From: Kondoa subrosea
Taxonomy: Eukaryota
NCBI GenBank assembly: GCA_039545335.1
Contig: BCIN01000005.1
Span: 1,333,946 to 1,397,945, forward strand
Length of the DNA: 64,000 nucleotides
Reading direction: 5' to 3'
Below the pieces are notes generated by a model. It was not told the origin of the DNA and did not search any database. It worked only from the letters and a program-made list of their open reading frames with translations. Both the position numbers and the translations under genes were made by a program. This document shows positions 6,082-28,635 of the stretch, one piece after another; the first letter of the stretch is position 1, and every line of letters begins with the position of its first letter.

Positions 6082-9000
6082 ATGGCCGCTCCATTGCCTA
6101 CGCCTATACCCTTGCCTAATCCTGATGACACAATAACTCGGTCGAACTCTCAAGATGGATCCCATTCATCTGCCCAAACTTTGATAGAAGAGCAGCAAGA
6201 CCAACAAGCTGCAGAACCCAAGAAAGCTGTAGCTAATGATATTCCTGAGTACTTCTCGCTTGACACTGAGTAAGTTGGAACCCTATCAAAACAAGGGATA
6301 CGAGCTCAAATGTAATATCCACAGGGGCGGACAAGAACTGGCACGCAGGCTGTCAAGAAGAGCAACTCAACATTCTACACGTTCTTCAGCTCATGGAGGA
6401 AACATTGATCCTGAAGCAGAAAACTTCGATTTGAAGAGATTCTTGCAAGATATGTTCCACAGACGAGATGAGGCTGGTTTAGAGAAAGTTGCTACTCTTG
6501 GTGTTGCTTTTGAAGATCTTACCGTCAAAGGTATTGGATCTGGTGTTGCTCTGAGCGAATCGTAAGCTCGGCTCGCATGTCGATCATTAACATTGTGTTG
6601 AAAGAAAGCTCGGTCCAGCTTCGGAGATGTCCTCAGTGCACCTGTACGCAAGTTGTACAACATTGCTACAGGTAAAGCCCATAAGGAACCTGAAAAGGTC
6701 AGTTCGCGCTGGCATTCATTGCACCGCGCAAATGACTTAATGCGTCATCAAAATAGGTCATTCTCAAAGGCTTCACTGGTCATGTCAAGCCTGTTAGTAC
6801 TGTAATGCTACTACAAAAATATGTATTAACAAGGGGTATAGGGAGAAATGGCGCTTGTTCTCGGTCGCCCCGGCAGTGGTTCAACGTAAGTTTTTTCTCC
6901 TCGGCACAGTCTAGGCAGCGTCTGACTATGAAGCTGGCTATAGGACACTCTTGAAGACTTTGACCAACTATCATGGAGGCTACAAAGCAGTCGAAGGCAA
7001 GCTCAAGTTCGATGGTCATGAGCACGATATCATGGAAGAGCGATATCGTGGCATGTGTGCCTATTTACCTGAGGGTAAGTTACAGCCCTTTTCTCTTGAT
7101 TCTCCGGCCGCGCGCTGAATAGGTTAATCTGTAGATGATGTGCATTTCCCCAATATCACTGTATGTGTCATGTTTGAGCGGTAGCTCACTATCTGACCAC
7201 ATTTTTACAGGTCGCTCAAACTTTGGACTTTGCTGTTCAGACTAGAGCACCTGCCAGTCGAGCTCGTCTACCGGACGAATCACGTAAAGACTTTGCTGTG
7301 CTATTTCGAGATGTTCTTGCGTAAGCGACAACCCATCGATCCTAATTCCCAGCTGACGCTCGGGAACAGCTCAATCTTGGGCTTGAGGCACACTTTCTCG
7401 ACAAAAGTTGGCGACGCTGTGGTTCGAGGTGTATCAGGTAAGAGTGCAATAGGCTGAATCTGATAGAACCTGATCGTTTGTGCAGGCGGTGAACGCAAAC
7501 GAGTCTCCATTGCTGAAGCGCTGGCCACTCGTGCCACCATCATGGCCCACGATAATAGTACTCGTGGTCTTGACGTAAGTGGAAAGTAAGACGAAATGGG
7601 TAACTGCTAAAACATCGATAGTCCTCTACGGCCTTGGAATACGGCAGAGCCCTTCGTATTGTAACGGATGTTGCTCAAGCTACTACTTTGCTCTCGATCT
7701 ATCAATGCGGCGAATCACTTTATCGTCTGTTCGACAAGATCATTGTCATTCATTCTGGACGCATGATTTACTTTGGCCCTGGAAACAAAGCTAGAGAATA
7801 CTTTGAGGAAATGGGATACAAGCCTGCTGATCGTCAAACAACTCCCGATTTCCTGGTGAACTTTATTCATTTTGTGTCGTTTTCTTGTGCTAATGCTATT
7901 GCAGGTCTCAGTTACAGACATTCATGCTCGCCAAATCAAAGATGATGTTGATCCTAAATCGGTGCCCAAGACGGCTGACGAAATGGCTCAAGCTTTCTTG
8001 AAGAGCAAGATGGGCAAAGCGAATCACGAAGCGCTTGATGAATACAACCGAAATATCAATGCGGACGAAAAGGCAGCTATGGTCAAAGCTTCGGCTAAAA
8101 ACCAGAAGGCTGGTCGAGCTTCCAACAAATCACCATACAACATTTCTTATCTGACTCAAATCCGTTTGTCCCTGAGAAGACGAGCCCAACTTGAACGTGG
8201 TGAAATAGCGACTTTTGCAATCAAAACTTTTGCTTCCATCTTCCAGGCTTTGATCATTGGTTCAGCTTTCTTTTTGATGCCTGTCAATACGTCGGCTTTC
8301 TTCTCTCGTGGTGGTGTACTCTTCTTTGCTATTCGTGAGTTGTTTCTCTCCCTTCCATCATGCAGGGTTGGCTTGACTTGGAATAAAGTATTTAACGCTT
8401 TCCAGGCCATGGCCGAATTGACATCTATGGTATATTTTCATGCTCTGGTCGCCATTTCGTATCATGCTAATATACAGAAAATAGTTCAGTCAACGTCCGA
8501 TCATTCAAAGGCAGAAGAGATTCGCTATGATTCGACCTTCAGCTGATGCTCTGGCTCAACTTGTTGTCGAACTACCTGCCAAGGTACGTTTCTGGTCTAT
8601 GTTGCTCTTAACCTGAGCTGATTCGTTGCAAACCAGCTTATTACTATTCTGGCGTTCGACATCATTTTATACTATATTTCCGGTCTTCAAAATCAGCTAG
8701 GTAAATTCGCGCCCTTCGATGACAACATCTTCTGACACTGATGCCATCCAGGATCGCAATTCTTCGTCTTCTATTTGTTCACGGTTCTTGGTACACTTTC
8801 TATGATTGCGCTTTTCAGAGCCATTGGTGCTTGGTCGAAGACTGAATCCGTCGCAACCGCTTTCGCTGGTATACTCATCTTGATTATCGCCATCTATACT
8901 GGTTACACTATTCCTCGTCCTTCCATGGTGGTGTGGTTCCGTTGGCTCTCATACTCGAAGTAAGTTTTCCTTGTTGATACTCTGTTCAGAAACTGACGCG

Positions 9001-12000
9001 CTCGCAAAGTCCCGTGCCGTTTGCTTTCGAAGCTGTTATTACCAACGAGTTCAGAACTATAAATGCTCCTTGTTCAGCTTTCGTTCCATCTGGAGCTGGC
9101 TATGCGAATATTGGCAACGCTAACAGACAATGTACTACGGCCGGCTACAACCCAAACACTGGCTTAGTCAATGGCGGCGACTACCTCGAAGCTCAAGTGA
9201 GTCTCGCGGCATTATCAGCTTACCGTCTACTGATTACGCCCATAGTTTGGCTACAAATGGTCTCACACCTGGAGAAATCTTGGATTCATCTTTGCATACT
9301 ATCTCTTCTTCCTTGCCATTTACATTATTGGCACTGAAAGACAAAAGGATGCTGCAGCTAGCGGAGGTGTACTCATTTTCAAACGTGGTCGTGAACCTGA
9401 AGCTGTAACTGCTGCACTCCAGAAGGGTCAGACTGTAGACGAAGAGAATTTGGCTGGGGAAGATCCTGAAGCTGTTGGCGGTGAAAATGAAGAACAGAAA
9501 GAAGCCGTATCCGAAGTCTCTGCTATGAAAGATGTCGTTACATGGCGCAATGGTGTGTCTCATTGTTCTGGCTTTTGAGTAACGTTGTGACATGGCGATC
9601 GATAGTTTGCTATGATGTCGATGTCAAAGGTGAAACTCGTCGATTGTTGGACAACGTCAATGGTTATGTCAAACCTGGTGCCATGACTGCTCTCATGGGA
9701 GAATCAGGTGCTGGTAAAACAAGTGAGTGAGACCGATATGACAAGTTTGATGTAGCTGATTTTCCTCTTGCGCAGCTCTTGTTAGTCTGTGCGATAATTT
9801 ACAATCGCTTCAAACTAATCTCTTGTACAGCTCAACGTTCTTGCGCAACGTGTCAACACTGGTGTCGTGTCTGGTGATTTCCTGGTCAACGGTCGACCAT
9901 TGCCAGCTAGTTTCCAAAGACAAACTGCCTGTATGTCAAAAGCTTGCAAAACTTTCACTTCACTTACTCCGGACAACAGATTGTCAACAGGAAGATACCC
10001 ACCTGTCGACTGCTACTGTCCGTGAAGCTCTTACTTTCTCTGCCATGCTCCGTCAGCCTGCATCTGTTTCAAAAGAAGACAAACTAGCATATGTCGAAGA
10101 AGGTATGCTCAGAGCTCTTCTCAACCTCACTTTCTGATCCAGTCGTCAATGCTCAGTCATCAAGATGCTGGAAATGGAAACCTTTGCCGAAGCCATTGTT
10201 GGCGAAGTCGGCGTTGGTCTAAGTGTGGAAGAAAGAAAACGTCTGACTATCGGTGTCGAACTTGCTAGCAAGCCTCAACTACTTATCTTCTTGGATGAAC
10301 CCACTTCCGGTCTAGACTCTCAGTCCGCCTGGTCAATCATGCGTTTCCTTCGCCGATTGTCACAAAATGGCCTTTCGATGTATGTTGAAAGCTTGCAGAA
10401 CATCCTCTTTGCTTACTCTCTTCTCGAAAGCCTGTGCACTATTCATCAGCCATCGTCCGAGCTGTTCCAATGCTTTGATCGTCTGCTTCTTCTGAAAAGA
10501 GGTGGTCAAATTGTTTATGAAGGTCCTTTGGGCAAGAACAGTCAAACATTGATCAAGTACTTCGAAGAGCGTTGTGACCAGAAGTGTGCCGATGATGCTA
10601 ATCCTGCTGAGTACATGCTGGATGTTATTGGTGCTGGAGCTGGTCAGACTTCCAAAATCGATTGGCATTCACTCTGGAAAGAATCCGACGAGGCAAAGAC
10701 TCTGGCCGACGAGATCGACAGGTATCATAAAGATACGGAAGGCAGAAAGACTAAGGCAGAAGAAGAAAACGAAAGCGGAAAGACTTATGCAGCTTCTCGC
10801 ATGACTCAATTCAGCCTTGTCTATAAGCGCATGCTGACCGACTATTGGAGAGATGCAACTTATCTGGTCAGTCGATTTGCCATCAACGTCGGAGCTGGTC
10901 TTTTCATTGGTGAATACGCACTACCTAAGAAACACCTCGAGCTAAACCCTTTCCAGGATTCTCCTTCTTCCGCCTTGGTCTATCTATCGCCGATTTGCAG
11001 AACAAGCTTTTCGCTACCTTCTTGTCAGTAGTTATTTCCACTACATTGGCTCAGCAATTGCAACCGAAATATCTTCAACATCGAACACTTTACGAAGCAA
11101 GAGAAAAGCCTTCGCGCATGTACAGCTGGACAATTCAACCTTTAGCCTCGGTACGTCATCCTGACCCGATGTATGCTAGAACACAATCTCATATCCCAGG
11201 TAGCTTTGTGCCGAAATACCTTGGAACGTGATTTCAGGAACTGTTTACTTCTTCTGCTTCGTAAGGAGCCCTGTTCACGCTTCGATTCATATCTAAGCGC
11301 TTTTTCACTTAGTACTTTACTGTCTTCTACCCAGAAGCTCGTTATGGAGCCGAAAGAGGCATTTACTGGTGGTTGATGTACATGGTTAGTCGTCTTCACT
11401 CGCGATCAGCCCATGTTAATACTTTCAGCAGATTTTCCAACTCTACTTCATCTCCTTCGGTCAAGCAGTAGCAGCAATCTCACCTGATGCAACAGCTGCT
11501 TCGATCTTGTTCAGTTCGCTGTTCTCCTTCGTTTTGATCTTCTGCGGTGTCTTCCAGTATGTTCTTGCCCCATCGCTGAATTTTTCACAACTAATTGCGT
11601 GTCCAGACCTCCGTCCCAGTTGCCGTATTTCTGGTACGTCCACGATGCTCATTGAGATAAACGTGAAGCGCTTATCACCATCTGCACAGGCGCTCTTGGA
11701 TGTATCCCCTGTCGCCTTTCAGAGTAAGTCAACAACCTATCTGACCGGGGGAGCCTGATCTGACTATTTCCTCACAGTATTTGATAGCTGGTCTACTTGC
11801 CGGTATGCACCTTATGGTACTCCCGATAGCTCTCCTGATCATTCTTTCGTAGATACCACTGGCAACCTACCTGTCGAATGCGCTAGCAATGAATTTGTCA
11901 CCATTCAGCCTACTGCAGGAACATGTCAAGATTACCTTGGACAATACATTCAATCCAGCGGAGGATATCTCACCAACCCTGGAGCTGCTGCTGACTGTCA

Positions 12001-18715: not shown

Positions 18716-21700
18716 ATGGCTCAGAACTCGAACGTCAAGATGTGGTCTTGCGATCATCCAGGCTGTACAAAGGCTTACAAGAGGCAAGATCACTTACTGA
18801 GACATCAACAGAATCGTATGTAATACTTGACTACGGAAGGACACGCTGTAATTCGTTGGCTCTTGCTGAACAGACTCCACTGAACCCCAATTCGTCTGTG
18901 ATCTCTGCTCGAAGTCTTTTGCAAGACATGATGTCCTCAAGAGACATCTCCAAAGGCATCAAGCGAAAGCTGAAGCTTCTCATTCACCGCAAACAGACGA
19001 ACAGACATCGCCTCAGCAGAAAGTGGATCGTCCGCCGCTCAAAAGGGCACGAACCGAAACTATGCCACCTGTGCTGGAGAATTCGACAGCGGCAGCTATC
19101 ACAGCAGATCACTATCGCCGATATACCGACAATGGGAGTCGGTTTGACAATTTCCCTACGTTCCCTTCGCAAAGCCAATCCCATTCTCAGCCGATTCAAC
19201 AACAGCGGATGTCGTTTCCTACGCAGCAAATCAATTCCAATTGGTTTGCCAACGGTGGTGGTCTGCCGCCTCCTTTGCCCAGTCCGAACAATATTCAGAA
19301 CCCGGCATCAATGTACACACCTCATTTGCCGCCTTTGAACCTAGCTTTTGAAACCGCAGCTATGCCTGATGATTTGCTTGGATGGCTCTTTGCTCCAAGT
19401 AATTCGGGCGGAAACGGCTTGAGTGAAGCTGATATGAATTCTGGATGGAGTTTACCAAATGGGCAAGATGCAATATTCAATCATCAAGCTCCTCCACCAC
19501 CACCTCCTCATAATATCGATCCATTACCTCTCCAAGTTCAACAATTTCCGCATCACTTTGCAGGCTCGATGCCATCCATCAAGCAAGAGGAACTAGGACA
19601 GCAGGTTCGTGCTGTGATGCCGGCTTGACACTTGAGATGCTCACTCTCATGAGTAGTTTGCGCAGTCTTCTTTCTCGCAGTCAATGGACTTCTTCGAATT
19701 TGTTATCACAGAGGAAATACGTAGAGACATGCTTCAAATCATTACTGTATGCGATCGAAACACTGTAAAATAGACAGATACTTATTCTTGACAATTCACA
19801 GGGTATGCCAGGTGTTGATATAGACTCTCCCGCTTTGTCGCTCCATGCGATGAATAATTATTTCGAGCTATGTTATATGTAAGCCGGTTGGACTTTTGGA
19901 TTCGGATGGTGTTGATTTCTCCATACAGTCGGTTTGGAGCTGTATATCAGGTGCGGTTCATCCACTTCATTCTCAAGTAGACTAATGTTTCTTTGCAGAT
20001 CATCCATCGACCTACTTTCCACCTTCGAGCCGGGACAACTCTTCCGTACTTACTTCTAGCGATGGTCTGCTCATATGAGACTGCAATCTTTGTTAAAATC
20101 TTACGCCAAAATGCAGATCTGTATAGGTTCATCTTTCGCGGAAGATCAAGCTGGCTACCTCTTGGCGATGCAGATCCATCAAAGGGTCAGGAGCAGAGTC
20201 ATCGAAGTGAGTATCTTCGTGAGGCTCGCATGATTCTTGAGCTGATTGCCAAGTTAGATGACTGAAAATCAACCTAGACCAGATGTGCCAACACTTCAGA
20301 CTTTACTCTTAGTCAATTATTTCGGTAGCTTGTCTTTCACTGTCACTTGTTGGCGTTCCACTCTCAGACAAATTGCTAGGTCGGATGTTTAGTAGTCTAG
20401 TACATCACGACATGAGTCAAATCTTCCATCCCGGCATTCTGGTCATGGCTCGCTTCAGCGGAATCTTTGGAGATACGGTTGAACCGCAAAGCTATCCACC
20501 TACTATGGCTGGCTGGTTAGCATATTTCGCTCACGAAGAGCGGAAAAGAGTAGCTTGGTTCGGCTTCGTCTCGGACATCAGTAAGTCAACCCTTCAAAAA
20601 GCTTCGAAAGGCTGGTCAATGACTTTCCTCAGATAACGCAACTATGTTTCGGTATCTAAACTCTTCGCTTGTGATCTACTACTTGCTTACATGACACGCA
20701 CAGACACCCGCTAAATAGTAAGTCGTTGTGAGCAGATGTGTAGACATGTGCTGATTGCGAACACAGTCAATACAAACAAGATGCGAATGCCTCTACCTTG
20801 CTCCAATCAAGTATGGGAGAGTCCATCCATACCCTCCTGGCACGAAGCGTTGCAAAACGACAATTCGACATTCACCTTTAGGCAATCTCTGAGTAGCGTG
20901 ATTGATGCGCATTGCGTGCCACCCAGCTTGTGCGACTTTTCTGCTCTCATTGTTCTACACGGATTGGTCGGTATTAGGTCAGAGTTCTCGCTAGAAATAC
21001 TTGCATTGTCTGAGCCCTGCTTTAGCTGCGAATTGATACGATCGGACCTGACTGACCTGCGTTTGTTCTTCGAGCAACACGATAGACGTCGCTGACTTTT
21101 ATACACTTTTGTACAGCGAGTATACCTTTGGGACGACGCATTGAATGGAAAGAGCGCGTCAAGTCTGGCTTTCTTGCTTGGCAACGCTTTGCAGACGAAA
21201 GAAGGGCATCACGTACACCCGTCGACTCTTCGCTCTTCTGCTGGATAGGCACGCCCCTTTGTCAGCTAGCTATGATTCTACTATACACCGACACCAAGGA
21301 TCTGCGAATCTTTGCTGGAGCTCGAATCGTCGCCGGCCGCACCATAACTGCCCGAGACAGGGAAGAAGCCAAAGGAAGATTATCTCATTGGGCACGAACG
21401 AGAAACGCAGAACATGCGACTTGGGCCGCTTTACAATGTAAGGGATTCCAGAGATGATTACTCGGAAGTAGTCAATGCTGATCTACTGTTGTCATTCAGT
21501 ATTGCAGCGCTTGTTTGTGGGGGAGAGTGAAAGTCACCTTTCGAGTGTACCAGGAAAGCAAGTCGTACTTCTCGTTGAAAGGCCAAATGCACTCTGTCTG
21601 ACCTGTGCATTTGTTATATCAGTGCAAGCTGGTGCTGCTATATTGCTGTCGGTGAGGAAGTGTCACGCGATGCTCTCAACCCAATGCTAACTTGATGTTC

Positions 21701-24156: not shown

Positions 24157-25535
24157 ATGAGCGCAACGGATCTTTCGTCCTTTACAGAATCTGTTATCGC
24201 TTCGTGGGTCTTACAATCCCTGCATCAGAGATTCTACTGATCGATTCATCCTTAGCATTGGCAAGGATGCTAATCCTCGAGCCAAAAAAGCTCTGCCTAT
24301 ATGTTTGTGATGTTGTTGGCTCGTTGACTGCCTCTGATTCGATGGATCGAAGTGATTCGCAAGCTTCATGAATTCTGTATTGAAGCAGATGTAACTGTAG
24401 AAGAATGGATGGATACTTGCAATCTGGTTGTAAAGGCAGGTCTCACCCTTTAGCGCTCGTCAAGCTCCTGGCTCATTTTGGAACTCAAGGCTGGACAAAT
24501 GTCGTCTCCAATGCGCAATGAAGTCATTCTGATGACGGATGTCTTGGGCATCGAATCGCTCGTTGACACTCTCGCTCAAATCAGGAACTCCAAATCTTCT
24601 GAAGCAGTCGCAACACATAGCGCTATTCTCGGTCCTTTCTACCGTCAAGGGGTCAAGCATCAGCCAAACGATACTTCTATCATTCGACAGGTATGTGCCT
24701 AGTAGTCTTCTCGCTCTCTTCGCTTATAACTTTGCTCCTTGCTTTTCATAGGAAGAGAAGGATGGAGACTATGTCTATTTAACCGGAACAGTGTATGATC
24801 AAAATGGCAAGCCTCTAGCGGGAGCGATCCTGGATGTTTGGCACGACGCACCTGATGTATGAGATCTTCTTTAATTGCCGGTAATTTACCCTAGCTAATC
24901 CTGCCTGCTATCGTAGGGTTTATAGTGAGTAGACCTAGTCAACAGCGAAAACGTAACTTTGATTGTGCTTACAAAGTGACTCGCAATCTCCCGACAAGCC
25001 TGAACATCACTGTCGAGGACGCTTCGAATCGGACGAAAAGGGTCGATATTCTCTTGTTTGCTTGAAGCCTTGTCCCTATCCAATCCCATACGATGGACCT
25101 ACTGGTGATATGCTGAAAATGATGGACAGACACCCTTATCGTCCAGCTCACATTCACTACATGGTACAAGCTCCAGGACATCGTTCTTTGGTTACTCAAG
25201 TTTTCGATCGCAAGTCAAAGTACTTGGAAGATGATTCAGTCTTCGCTGTGAAAGTATGTCCATGAGTAAGGGATGTTGACACTTCTGATCGCGCAACTTT
25301 GATATCGTAGGATAGTCTCGTCGTTGACTTTGTGCCTCTCGGGGATAGCAAGCTTCCTAAAGATTTGCCCGATGGAGACAAGGTATAGGATCTTCTCTCT
25401 CTCTCCATTCCGGTAACATTATCTCACAGAGGTCGACAGGTCCGATACACCTTGAATTACGATATTCACCTTGCTGCCGCTAGCGATTCATCGATCTCCA
25501 TCGAAGCGCCGGTTGGTGCTGAAGTAGCTAAATAG
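24157..25535 (+). CDS. Intradiol ring-cleavage dioxygenase, fungal catechol 1,2-dioxygenase-like
   Basis: AGQMS..RNEVILMTDVLGIESLVD, SAILGPFY, WHDAPDGLYDSQ (Fe-ligand Tyr), PYPIPYDGP (Tyr), RPAHIH (two His), DDSVFAVKDSL. Confidence 0.9.
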
Positions 25536-25638: not shown

Positions 25639-28635
25639 TTAGTTGAGCCATTGAGCTGTTGCAGCTCCTCCTTCGGGTAGTTTGACACGAGCCACTTCTC
25701 TAAATTTATCCCCTAACCAAGATACAACCATTACTTGACCAGTTTCCGAGCAGGTGAGTGAAAGGTAATCTTTGTCGTTGCATTGGAATGGTGCACTTTC
25801 TATAGCGTTCGCCCATCCACCCGAAGTAGGTGTCTGCCATATCTGTAGCGAAGTATCTGGACTCGATAGAAAACCATCTTCTCTCAAGGCATAGGCGGCT
25901 AAGTATCCTTTGGTGCTTTCCTTTAAACCTCGCGTTGATGCGAACAGAGTTGAAGGTATATCTGACTGCAGAGAGAGTCGCACTTCATCGGCCCAGAAGT
26001 CTTTCTCGTCCTGATCTGCAAACACTATATCAGCACGCCTAATTACAACAGACCAAACATACCTTCAGGGATGATCCGACAACCTTGCCGCCATTCTAGT
26101 CCATCAACGGTATGTTCGAAGACATCGACCATGCAGGAATGCTCTTGTAAGCTGTAGACGACTTTGCCGTTCGGATGCGGCCAGACCTGTTGCATCTTAG
26201 TTCATGCTCTGAAATTGACAAGAACGACCTACATGTCTTGGTCCGTCGTTACCTCGTGTTGCTGTGACCTTCTTTTGCGAATGAGTTTTGCCCTGCTCAT
26301 CGACTTCAAAGGTCCAGATACAATTCCGTCCACTATAGGATGCGCACTTAGCATGCGTGGGAATAAAGCAGTCCCTATGACTCACATGTCTGCAACGTAA
26401 AGCGTCTTTCCATCCGGCGAAAGGTCTGCTGAATGAGCGCCGTGTCTTAGCCCACCGAAATCCATCACGGAACCAGAATCTTGCTGTTGCGAAGGATCAA
26501 CGAAAGATAGAGATTGCTGAAGATCTTCCAATGCTCCTGTCTTTTGATTGATAGCGTATACTTCACCCGAGGCGCCACCAGCTGAGTAAGCTGAAGTCGC
26601 AGATACTGTAACATAACCAGAACGTGATGCAGTTGGAACGCAACTGAGAAGCTCTATTGACGGTATTCTATTATCATTGTTGATGTGATAGGAAGATAGA
26701 CTGGGTGGATTCGACCAGCATGTAGCGTAAAGATGAGTTTTCGCAGACTAGGCTGCATTAGCTCGAGCTCTGGATGTGAAGGTTGGAACATACGTTGAGT
26801 GCAAGCCAAGAATGAGATCCTTTAGCTTTATGCTGGGCAATGATATTTAGAGTTTCGGCTTCGTGATCGAATTCGAGCACTTTCATCGAAAGATCAGCTC
26901 GACATGGAACTAAAGAGCAAAGAAGCATACCATAGAGATGAGGACTATCGAATGTTCCAACAAGCATCTGATGTCGACTTGTAGGAGCATGAAATCCATT
27001 TGTCTGTCGTTTCTCTCTAGCAAAACAGAACGTTTATCAACATAAAATCCTTGCACAACGTCTGCACACATAGCCTACGAGACAAACTTGGAGATGAGAC
27101 CTCCCACTTCCGCTGGCGCTTCTACAGCCTGCCAGTGTCCTATTTCAGGTAATATCTCCACCTTGCAATTCTGGATCTTGGCTTTGAGCGAATTGAGTGC
27201 GCTTGGACTTGCCATTTGATCTTCCGCACCTCCTATGAGTAGTGTAGGAGCACTGATACTAGCATAAGCCGGATCTGTAGCTTCCGCCAAAGCATCGCAC
27301 GCAGCAATGTAAGCCAACGGCTGAGTGGATTTCACTAGCTCTTTGACTTGGTTGACCACTTTTGGATTGTTGGCCTTGGTGCGCTTAGATAGAGCTCCGT
27401 TTGCTACAGCTTCGGAGACGGGATCTATGCCTTTTGAGCGTATTGTGCTGGCGCGTGAACGGATATTGGCTTTGCCCGCTTCTGACATTTCTTGAACTCC
27501 TCCAACACAGACTAGAAACATTAAGCACAGGTAAAGAAGCAATATCAATACGCTCACTGAGATGCTTAATTCTTTCTGAATGTTCAGCTGCTACTTTCGC
27601 TACGACCATCTGTGGCAGAAAGATCAGATTTGCTTCTGATGAAGAATGTAAAACGTACCCCTGACATAGAATGACCAACAAGAGAAGCTTGTTCCAGATC
27701 CAAAGCGTCCATCAGATCAATAACATCCTTGCTCAGAGTTTCGATTGTAAGCGGGCCAGACAGAGGAGAATGACCATGTCCATCAAAGTCGACGAGATAG
27801 ATAGTATGTTTCTGCTTCAAGGAGCTTTGGAAAATGACTTCGTCCCAGTAGGTCGTATTCGATCCTAGGCCGTGCAAAAAGATAATAGCAGGACCGTTTC
27901 CCATTCTTCGTACATGCAATTTCTTGTTCGGCAGTTGAATCAAGGAGCTAATCTACTGATGAGAACAGAACTCGAGGAGAATAGTGAAACAGCAAACCTT
28001 TGGCAGCCAGGAGTTTGTTTCGGCATAGCTTTCGCCAGCTTGCCAGGAGTAGCGTCCTGAAAGCGTTAGTCAGCACAAGTAATCTCGATGTGTCACAGAT
28101 AGCTGACGAAGAAGACCTGGTAATGCTGCATTTTACGTGAATTAGAATCAGGAGTAAATTGCATCTGCTCGGGCAGAACATCAGAAGACTGGACTTGATA
28201 ACACTTCTGAGGAACTAACCCGAGCAGCAAAGTCTGTTCCATGTGCAGAGTGGCCATTCTCATAATCCAAATCTACTTGACCCAGCAAAATGTAATCGTT
28301 CGCTTTCCCTCCAGTTTCAGTTTGTGCTGCCGCAGGATACACTTGAAAGACGGTATGTTTCCGCTTGACTACTCCATGCCACATGGCTTTGCGCAGATCC
28401 GCAATCTTAGAAGCTGGTATTTCAGCATTGCCAAATTTGAGAATTGCACTATAATATTATCAACACCAGAGTCAGCAACCCTTCTGAGTGACGATGAACA
28501 TGTCAAAACGACAGACTTGGCAGTGAAACAGTCAATATAGGCTTGAGTTCCGTTTCTGTCATCGCTGATTACAAAAAAGCGAGTGATGAAGTCCAGTACT
28601 TCTGGGTCTAAATCTTTGGGGACTTTGATCACCAT
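25639..28635 (-). CDS. Predicted three-domain fusion: SnoaL/NTF2-like domain + 3-oxoadipate enol-lactone hydrolase-like alpha/beta-hydrolase + beta-propeller muconate cycloisomerase
   Basis: Exons 28635-28517, 28448-28220, 28164-28108, 28056-27998, 27947-27659, 27609-27558, 27511-27079, 27016-26931, 26879-26794 and further exons to the stop at 25639 stay in one frame using GT-AG introns. Hydrolase: HGLGS, GHSMSG, GAEDQMA, GHWQAVE. Cycloisomerase: VGTF, SHSWL, MDFGGLRHGAHSADLSPDG, DGPRH, LQEH, FWADEVRLS, TPTSGGWANAI. Domain identities are more certain than the single-transcript model. Confidence 0.75.

Follow-up and report, generated by a model that had tools for sequence, protein, structure and literature searches.

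How is muconolactone converted to 3-oxoadipate enol-lactone in the salicylate/catechol-type gene cluster of the fungus Kondoa subrosea? This question is raised by a 64,000-nt stretch of contig BCIN01000005.1 (positions 1,333,946 to 1,397,945; referred to as the window, with coordinates counted from its first letter), where the conversion of muconolactone to the enol-lactone is the only step of the cluster without a recognisable enzyme. The candidate considered here is an N-terminal region of about 135 amino acid residues (aa) encoded on the minus strand ahead of an enol-lactonase. With a probability of slightly above one half (about 0.55), this region is an enzymatic domain of the NTF2-like (ketosteroid-isomerase/SnoaL) type and functions as a fungal muconolactone isomerase.

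Exon structure and conservation of the N-terminal domain

The initial annotation had described an N-terminal domain of ~135 aa, and all peptide strings quoted there were recovered from the minus strand, distributed over three exons (Table 1). The final D of the last string (QVFFD) requires a third, putative intron; without this intron, the frame continues after VFF for four residues to a stop at 28097-28095. Exon 2, forming the domain core, is a real, conserved coding exon and not a chance reading frame: a phmmer search against 1.84 billion representative proteins yielded four matches (E 3.2e-20 to 7.4e-9; 60–67 % identity), all of which are short exon-like fragments, each from a single unannotated contig and without full-length cluster members. 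The 5' border of exon 2 reads S-A (AG|T) in both fragments extending upstream, and the 3' border R-V (GT donor) in all three fragments reaching that far. Since S-A and R-V represent the translated acceptor and donor, respectively, the intron positions are common to the relatives, i.e., the acceptor of intron 1 is shared in the alignment with fragments P0001 and P0002, and the donor of intron 2 with P0001, P0002 and P0004. Exons 1 and 3 are covered by none of the homologues found; exon 3 presumably supplies the last strands of the domain.

In the five-sequence alignment of exon 2, 13 columns show no variation, including R29, H31, Y37, D51 and E63 in exon numbering (R69, H71, Y77, D91 and E103 in the gene model). 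Judged from the alignment, these polar residues would suit an enzyme pocket. Within exon 2, fragment P0001 has 18 additional residues in frame, a stretch that starts with V (GT), ends with Q (CAG-type codon) and looks like an additional intron in that lineage.

Table 1 Coordinates of the N-terminal domain, the adjoining lactonase and neighbouring catabolic genes in the window
Feature	Position	Strand	Remarks
Exon 1 of N-terminal domain	28635-28517	-	ATG at 28635; 39 codons + 2 nt; from sequence and splice model
Intron 1	28516-28449	-	68 nt, GT-AG, GTCTGT..TATAG
Exon 2, domain core	28448-28220	-	76 aa in frame from 28447
Intron 2	28219-28165	-	55 nt, GT-AG, GTTAGT..GAGCAG
Exon 3	28164-28108	-	19 aa; splice model
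Putative intron 3	28107-28057	-	51 nt, GT-AG; alternative paths exist
Putative linker exon 4	28056-27998	-	Pro/Lys/Thr-rich; in-frame ATG at about 28026
Putative intron 4	27997-27948	-	50 nt, GTTTGC..GATTAG
α/β-hydrolase, PcaD-like 3-oxoadipate enol-lactonase	27947-27075	-	Exons 27947-27659, 27609-27558, 27511-27075; stop TAG 27077-27075
Eukaryote-type (carboxy)muconate cyclase, β-propeller	26969-25639	-	First ATG 26969-26967
Intradiol ring-cleavage dioxygenase, catechol or hydroxyquinol 1,2-dioxygenase type	24454-25262	+	Pfam Dioxygenase_N 1.4e-8, Dioxygenase_C 1.1e-23
FAD monooxygenase resembling salicylate hydroxylase	23716-22146	-	PDB salicylate hydroxylases 5evy 3.8e-9, 6bz5 9.6e-9

Predicted fold

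With the domain split by frame-shifting introns, only exon 2 (76 of about 135 residues) was folded as the core. Its AlphaFold2 model, based on the five-sequence alignment (mean pLDDT 82.5), proceeds from a short β-hairpin via a helix of 13 residues to three long strands. The single-sequence model of exon 1, consisting of one helix (residues 11–18) and short strands, is uninformative on the fold. Searched with Foldseek against the PDB, the exon 2 model finds its best matches among NTF2-like proteins: 3ebt (E 0.091, probability 0.99), limonene epoxide hydrolase, TerC and the isomerase NsrQ. An independent structure comparison across 48,161 chains is headed by the putative ketosteroid isomerase 3bb9 (Z 4.5, rmsd 5.7 Å over 61 residues), and 16 of its top 30 entries are named NTF2, SnoaL, ketosteroid isomerase or polyketide cyclase, while several further ones in this group are presumably also members of the NTF2 superfamily. 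The same mainly NTF2-like picture emerges from the comparison of Foldseek's top 994 chains. The aligned target ranges correspond to the C-terminal two thirds of the matched NTF2-like proteins, as would follow from the N-terminal helices, absent from the model, being encoded by exon 1. An NTF2-like fold of the domain, for which AlphaFold and Foldseek had been suggested as a check, appears reasonable at the level of the modelled fragment, given mostly NTF2-like matches at weak scores.

With ketosteroid isomerase and SnoaL-type enzymes (3bb9, 7epn, 5z3r and NsrQ, 7f0o), the exon 2 model shares part of the fold, and the proposed chemistry would be of the same kind, namely an allylic proton shift via a dienolate in a hydrophobic cone. 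It differs from them in that Z reaches only 3.0–4.5 at 8–16 % identity and no Pfam family of the SnoaL or ketosteroid isomerase type is matched; their catalytic residues are not alignable from the fragment.

Relation to known muconolactone isomerases

According to a review passage, deletion of AN4061 in Aspergillus nidulans results in accumulation of muconolactone, and later papers trace the assignment of AN4061 as muconolactone isomerase to the knockout by Martins et al. (2015). In a 2021 paper, AN4061 is entered in a supplementary table as 'muconolactone isomerase (IPR032710)', IPR032710 being the entry for the NTF2-like domain. An NTF2-like protein as fungal non-CatC muconolactone isomerase, as proposed for this locus in the initial annotation, agrees with the genetic assignment conveyed by these sources and is, in substance, already in print rather than a new hypothesis. 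Novelty may lie in how tightly the isomerase domain is coupled, perhaps even fused, to the enol-lactonase (possibly also the cyclase), and in the very narrow sequence family.

AN4061 and the domain of K. subrosea both belong to the catechol/salicylate pathway. The former is annotated as NTF2-like without finer family, the latter combines a hint from the fold with no family match; the absence of a Pfam match would fit kinship with AN4061, since AN4061 bears a superfamily-level label only. Association with catechol-branch genes is a further common trait: the present domain is located directly upstream of the PcaD-like hydrolase, and in Scedosporium apiospermum, the genes orthologous to AN4061 and to the enol-lactonase gene AN4531 are reported to be immediate neighbours. 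In A. nidulans, by contrast, AN4061 is a stand-alone protein and, by the gene numbers, unlinked to AN4531, whereas the domain here adjoins, and is perhaps fused to, the lactonase.

Likeness to bacterial CatC (Pfam family MIase, PF02426) is confined to the proposed reaction and the position in the pathway. The lack of similarity to CatC noted initially was borne out by the Pfam scans, with no MIase match in the exons of the domain or in 80 further open reading frames of the window (87 translated pieces in total). CatC forms a ferredoxin-like decamer of ~96-aa subunits, and its fold has no relation to that predicted for the present domain.

Evidence weighing against an isomerase function

Several results count against the assignment. 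By none of the sequence methods was the domain assigned to a family: neither exon 1 (39 aa) nor exon 2 (76 aa) retrieved a Pfam family at E ≤ 1, a result with which a remote relation would still be compatible in view of the shortness of the pieces; the hidden Markov models of the SnoaL-type families (SnoaL, SnoaL_2, SnoaL_3, SnoaL_4) matched neither exon; NCBIfam returned no family for the domain; the five-sequence profile of exon 2 retrieved no PDB sequence at E ≤ 10; and look-ups in the ESM Atlas named no NTF2 family, the best score of 0.89 being under the recognition threshold. The initial label 'SnoaL-like' derives from the predicted fold of the exon 2 fragment and not from sequence. Furthermore, the phmmer search with exon 2 produced no full-length fungal protein among the 1.84 billion representatives. 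Detection in this library takes an estimated 40 bits for a 76-aa query, so that orthologues at ~30 % identity could escape; any relation to AN4061 is therefore either remote or invisible to a query of this length. On the structural side, the exon 2 model has no Foldseek match in the PDB at E ≤ 0.001, and no chain reaches Z ≥ 5 among the 48,161 compared or among Foldseek's top 994. As to the pathway, the closest solved relatives of the dioxygenase include hydroxyquinol enzymes, and the only solved relative of the cyclase is the carboxymuconate enzyme 1jof. Finally, when the spacer was shuffled 300 times with dinucleotides preserved, an in-frame splice path from the domain to the lactonase arose in 228 cases; for a path from the lactonase to the cyclase, the figure was 177 of 300.

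Longer proteins containing exon 2 were likewise not encountered in the homologue search, and its five-sequence profile had no match among proteins of 222–2000 aa, a size range with stand-alone proteins of 134–221 aa outside the search. The last exon of the lactonase retrieved a single, unrelated 260-aa hydrolase (E 9.6e-4) from longer proteins. The 93 pattern matches obtained from JGI metagenomes contained no relatives. The one locus retrieved in a GTDB genome scan, L001 (4719-4751), matches the exon 2 motif over 11 residues at 91 % identity; it is located inside a 344-aa protein of a Caulobacteraceae metagenome-assembled genome (MAG), and the match was judged to be due to chance.

Enol-lactonase and gene structure

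The hydrolase encoded downstream of the domain contains the nucleophile motif GHSMSG and matches Pfam Abhydrolase_1 (2.5e-12). Its first exon (exon 5 of the gene model) is most similar in the PDB to the 3-oxoadipate enol-lactonase 2xua (3.1e-10), and its last exon to the NCBIfam families PcaDC, PcaCD and PcaD (3.4e-22 to 3.1e-17), with the next family at 3e-5. For TIGR02427 (PcaD), two lactonase exon pieces scored 57.5 and 62.8 bits as compared to a cut-off of 255.85; NCBIfam scores under the curated cut-offs are expected for single exon pieces.

A gene model via putative introns 3 and 4 combines domain and hydrolase in 413 aa. Upstream of the strands aligning to solved α/β-hydrolases, the frame of the lactonase runs into a stop (27955-27953), and relative to 2xua, the first in-frame Met of the first lactonase exon falls at about residue 23. 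As the stop precedes the hydrolase-aligned strands, an upstream exon (through intron 4) is needed for the lactonase in any case. Compatibility of the frames was dropped as an argument for fusion, because in-frame GT-AG paths are common by chance in the shuffles, and the Rosetta-stone premise of the initial annotation, i.e., two fused neighbours, is not supported by it. Nevertheless, the hydrolase probably resides on the same polypeptide as the N-terminal domain, at odds of roughly two in three for such a two-domain fusion.

Clearly less probable, though to be taken seriously, is an arrangement as two adjacent genes, in which the domain would form a small gene of its own, terminated at 28097-28095, and the lactonase would start from the ATG near 28026. 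Such adjacency would be compatible with any function of the domain. Retention of intron 3 would provide a natural C-terminus, the start codon in exon 4 is in frame, and two adjacent separate genes are also reported for S. apiospermum; moreover, the mere existence of a splice path proves nothing given its frequency in the shuffles. Against separate genes speaks the distance of only about 68 nt from stop to ATG, which would leave very little space between fungal genes that are transcribed independently. In addition, lactonase strands aligning to solved hydrolases precede the first internal Met in a frame closed upstream, requiring the additional exon.

Extension of the two-domain fusion to the cyclase is doubtful. 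The lactonase stop is separated from the first ATG of the cyclase by about 105 nt, and a GT-AG intron at 27078-27017 would join both in frame. It is only a tentative suggestion, to be rated at about one in four, that putative introns 3 and 4 together with this third one connect isomerase (NTF2-like), enol-lactonase and muconate cyclase in a single polypeptide, with the domain representing a narrowly distributed family of NTF2-like isomerases unconnected by sequence searches. Such a three-activity polypeptide would convert cis,cis-muconate to 3-oxoadipate without release of the labile lactones.

In bacterial PcaDC, the partner domain of the enol-lactonase is the AhpD-like PcaC. A. niger ChdA, a 3-carboxymuconolactone hydrolase/decarboxylase, consists of an uncharacterised N-terminal half, described as BRO-N-like (IPR003497), and a C-terminal enol-lactonase-like hydrolase, and converts 3-carboxymuconolactone to β-ketoadipate. 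ChdA as well as bacterial PcaL/PcaDC resemble the putative fusion of K. subrosea in joining an enol-lactonase of the α/β-hydrolase type to the enzyme of the preceding step; they differ by functioning in the protocatechuate rather than the catechol branch. ChdA is further set apart by its BRO-N-like partner, with no Bro-N Pfam match here, and by the size of the N-terminal part, which makes up about half of a ~61 kDa protein as compared to ~135 aa in K. subrosea.

Pathway setting and alternative functions

The genes listed in Table 1 constitute what is, judged from their predicted products, a compact salicylate/catechol-type cluster, spanning 22.1–28.6 kb of the window, with housekeeping genes (one SUMO-E1-like, the other for a RING protein) on its flanks. 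The catechol-branch setting is supported by the salicylate-hydroxylase-like, intradiol dioxygenase, cyclase and PcaD-like neighbours. The dioxygenase, which contains the N-terminal domain typical of catechol dioxygenases in addition to the catalytic one, matches PnpC (4e-27) and catechol 1,2-dioxygenases (around 2e-22) in the PDB, and the last exon of the cyclase matches 1jof, the carboxy-cis,cis-muconate cyclase of Neurospora (2.7e-10), as well as Pfam Lactonase (0.004). Because these matches leave the substrate undecided, the catechol branch is deduced mainly from the salicylate-hydroxylase-like neighbour.

This ambiguity bears on the possibility that the domain catalyses another lactone step, i.e., decarboxylation/isomerisation of 3-carboxymuconolactone (protocatechuate branch) or conversion of substituted (methyl, hydroxy) muconolactones. 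The former role has been proposed for the N-terminal half of ChdA, preceding an enol-lactonase-like hydrolase in a protein acting on 3-carboxymuconolactone. The match of the cyclase to 1jof and the unsettled substrate of the dioxygenase would agree with it. However, the N-terminal half of ChdA is described as BRO-N-like and not NTF2-like, and no such Pfam match was obtained here; the neighbouring monooxygenase is most similar to salicylate hydroxylase, which produces catechol; and 1jof, being the only solved eukaryotic cyclase of its type, does not separate substrates. Another lactone step is therefore unlikely. Still somewhat less likely is a non-catalytic NTF2-like module on the lactonase (oligomerisation, lid or ligand binding): NTF2-like domains frequently have no enzymatic role, scores in the structural comparisons are low and isomerase activity of the domain is a prediction, but the pathway would then lack an isomerase, with no CatC-like gene in the 87 translated pieces scanned, and the invariant R, H, Y, D and E residues as well as the AN4061 knockout precedent from the secondary sources argue for an enzyme.

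Further genes lie in the surroundings of the cluster. Open reading frame pieces at 18870-21454 (plus strand) display a C2H2 zinc-finger-like motif in translation, without Pfam match at 1e-5, and may encode a regulator of the cluster. Directly upstream of the domain gene, a long Glu/Asp/Ser-rich open reading frame (30490-28895, minus strand; 372 aa from stop to stop) is present, followed by a RING-finger piece (Pfam RING_XB3-XBAT31, 1.5e-7, under its cut-off). Pieces of a PDR/CDR-type ABC transporter (ABC_trans_N, PDR_CDR, ABC2_membrane_7) are encoded at 6233-11028 on the plus strand.

Proposed reaction and implications

For the domain as muconolactone isomerase, we infer isomerase activity, catalytic residues, orthology to AN4061 and fusion to the lactonase as parts of one model. 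The domain would bind (+)-muconolactone formed by the neighbouring β-propeller cyclase. A base in the pocket would abstract the γ proton and the α carbon would be reprotonated, amounting to a 1,3 shift via a dienolate that yields 3-oxoadipate enol-lactone. The latter would be opened to 3-oxoadipate by the Ser-His-Asp α/β-hydrolase encoded directly downstream. Candidate pocket residues are R69, H71, Y77, D91 and E103, on account of their invariance in the five aligned sequences.

The AN4061 assignment is little noticed. Fungal genome papers still refer to muconolactone isomerase as missing, because bacterial catC is what they look for: a 2017 paper reports that no fungal muconolactone isomerase sequence was found, and a 2025 paper that catC, the only gene looked for, was not detected. 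In the literature library searched, no paper combines 'muconolactone isomerase' with 'NTF2', and 'muconolactone' occurs together with 'SnoaL' only in a paper on a mycobacterial sigma factor. Neither a structure nor kinetics for an NTF2-like class of muconolactone isomerases was found in the literature searches made. If the domain is physically joined to the enol-lactonase, the locus of K. subrosea would provide independent, Rosetta-stone-type support for the knockout-based assignment of AN4061. Such a fusion would also represent a compact enzyme for two, perhaps three, consecutive steps, suited for engineering routes to muconate or 3-oxoadipate.

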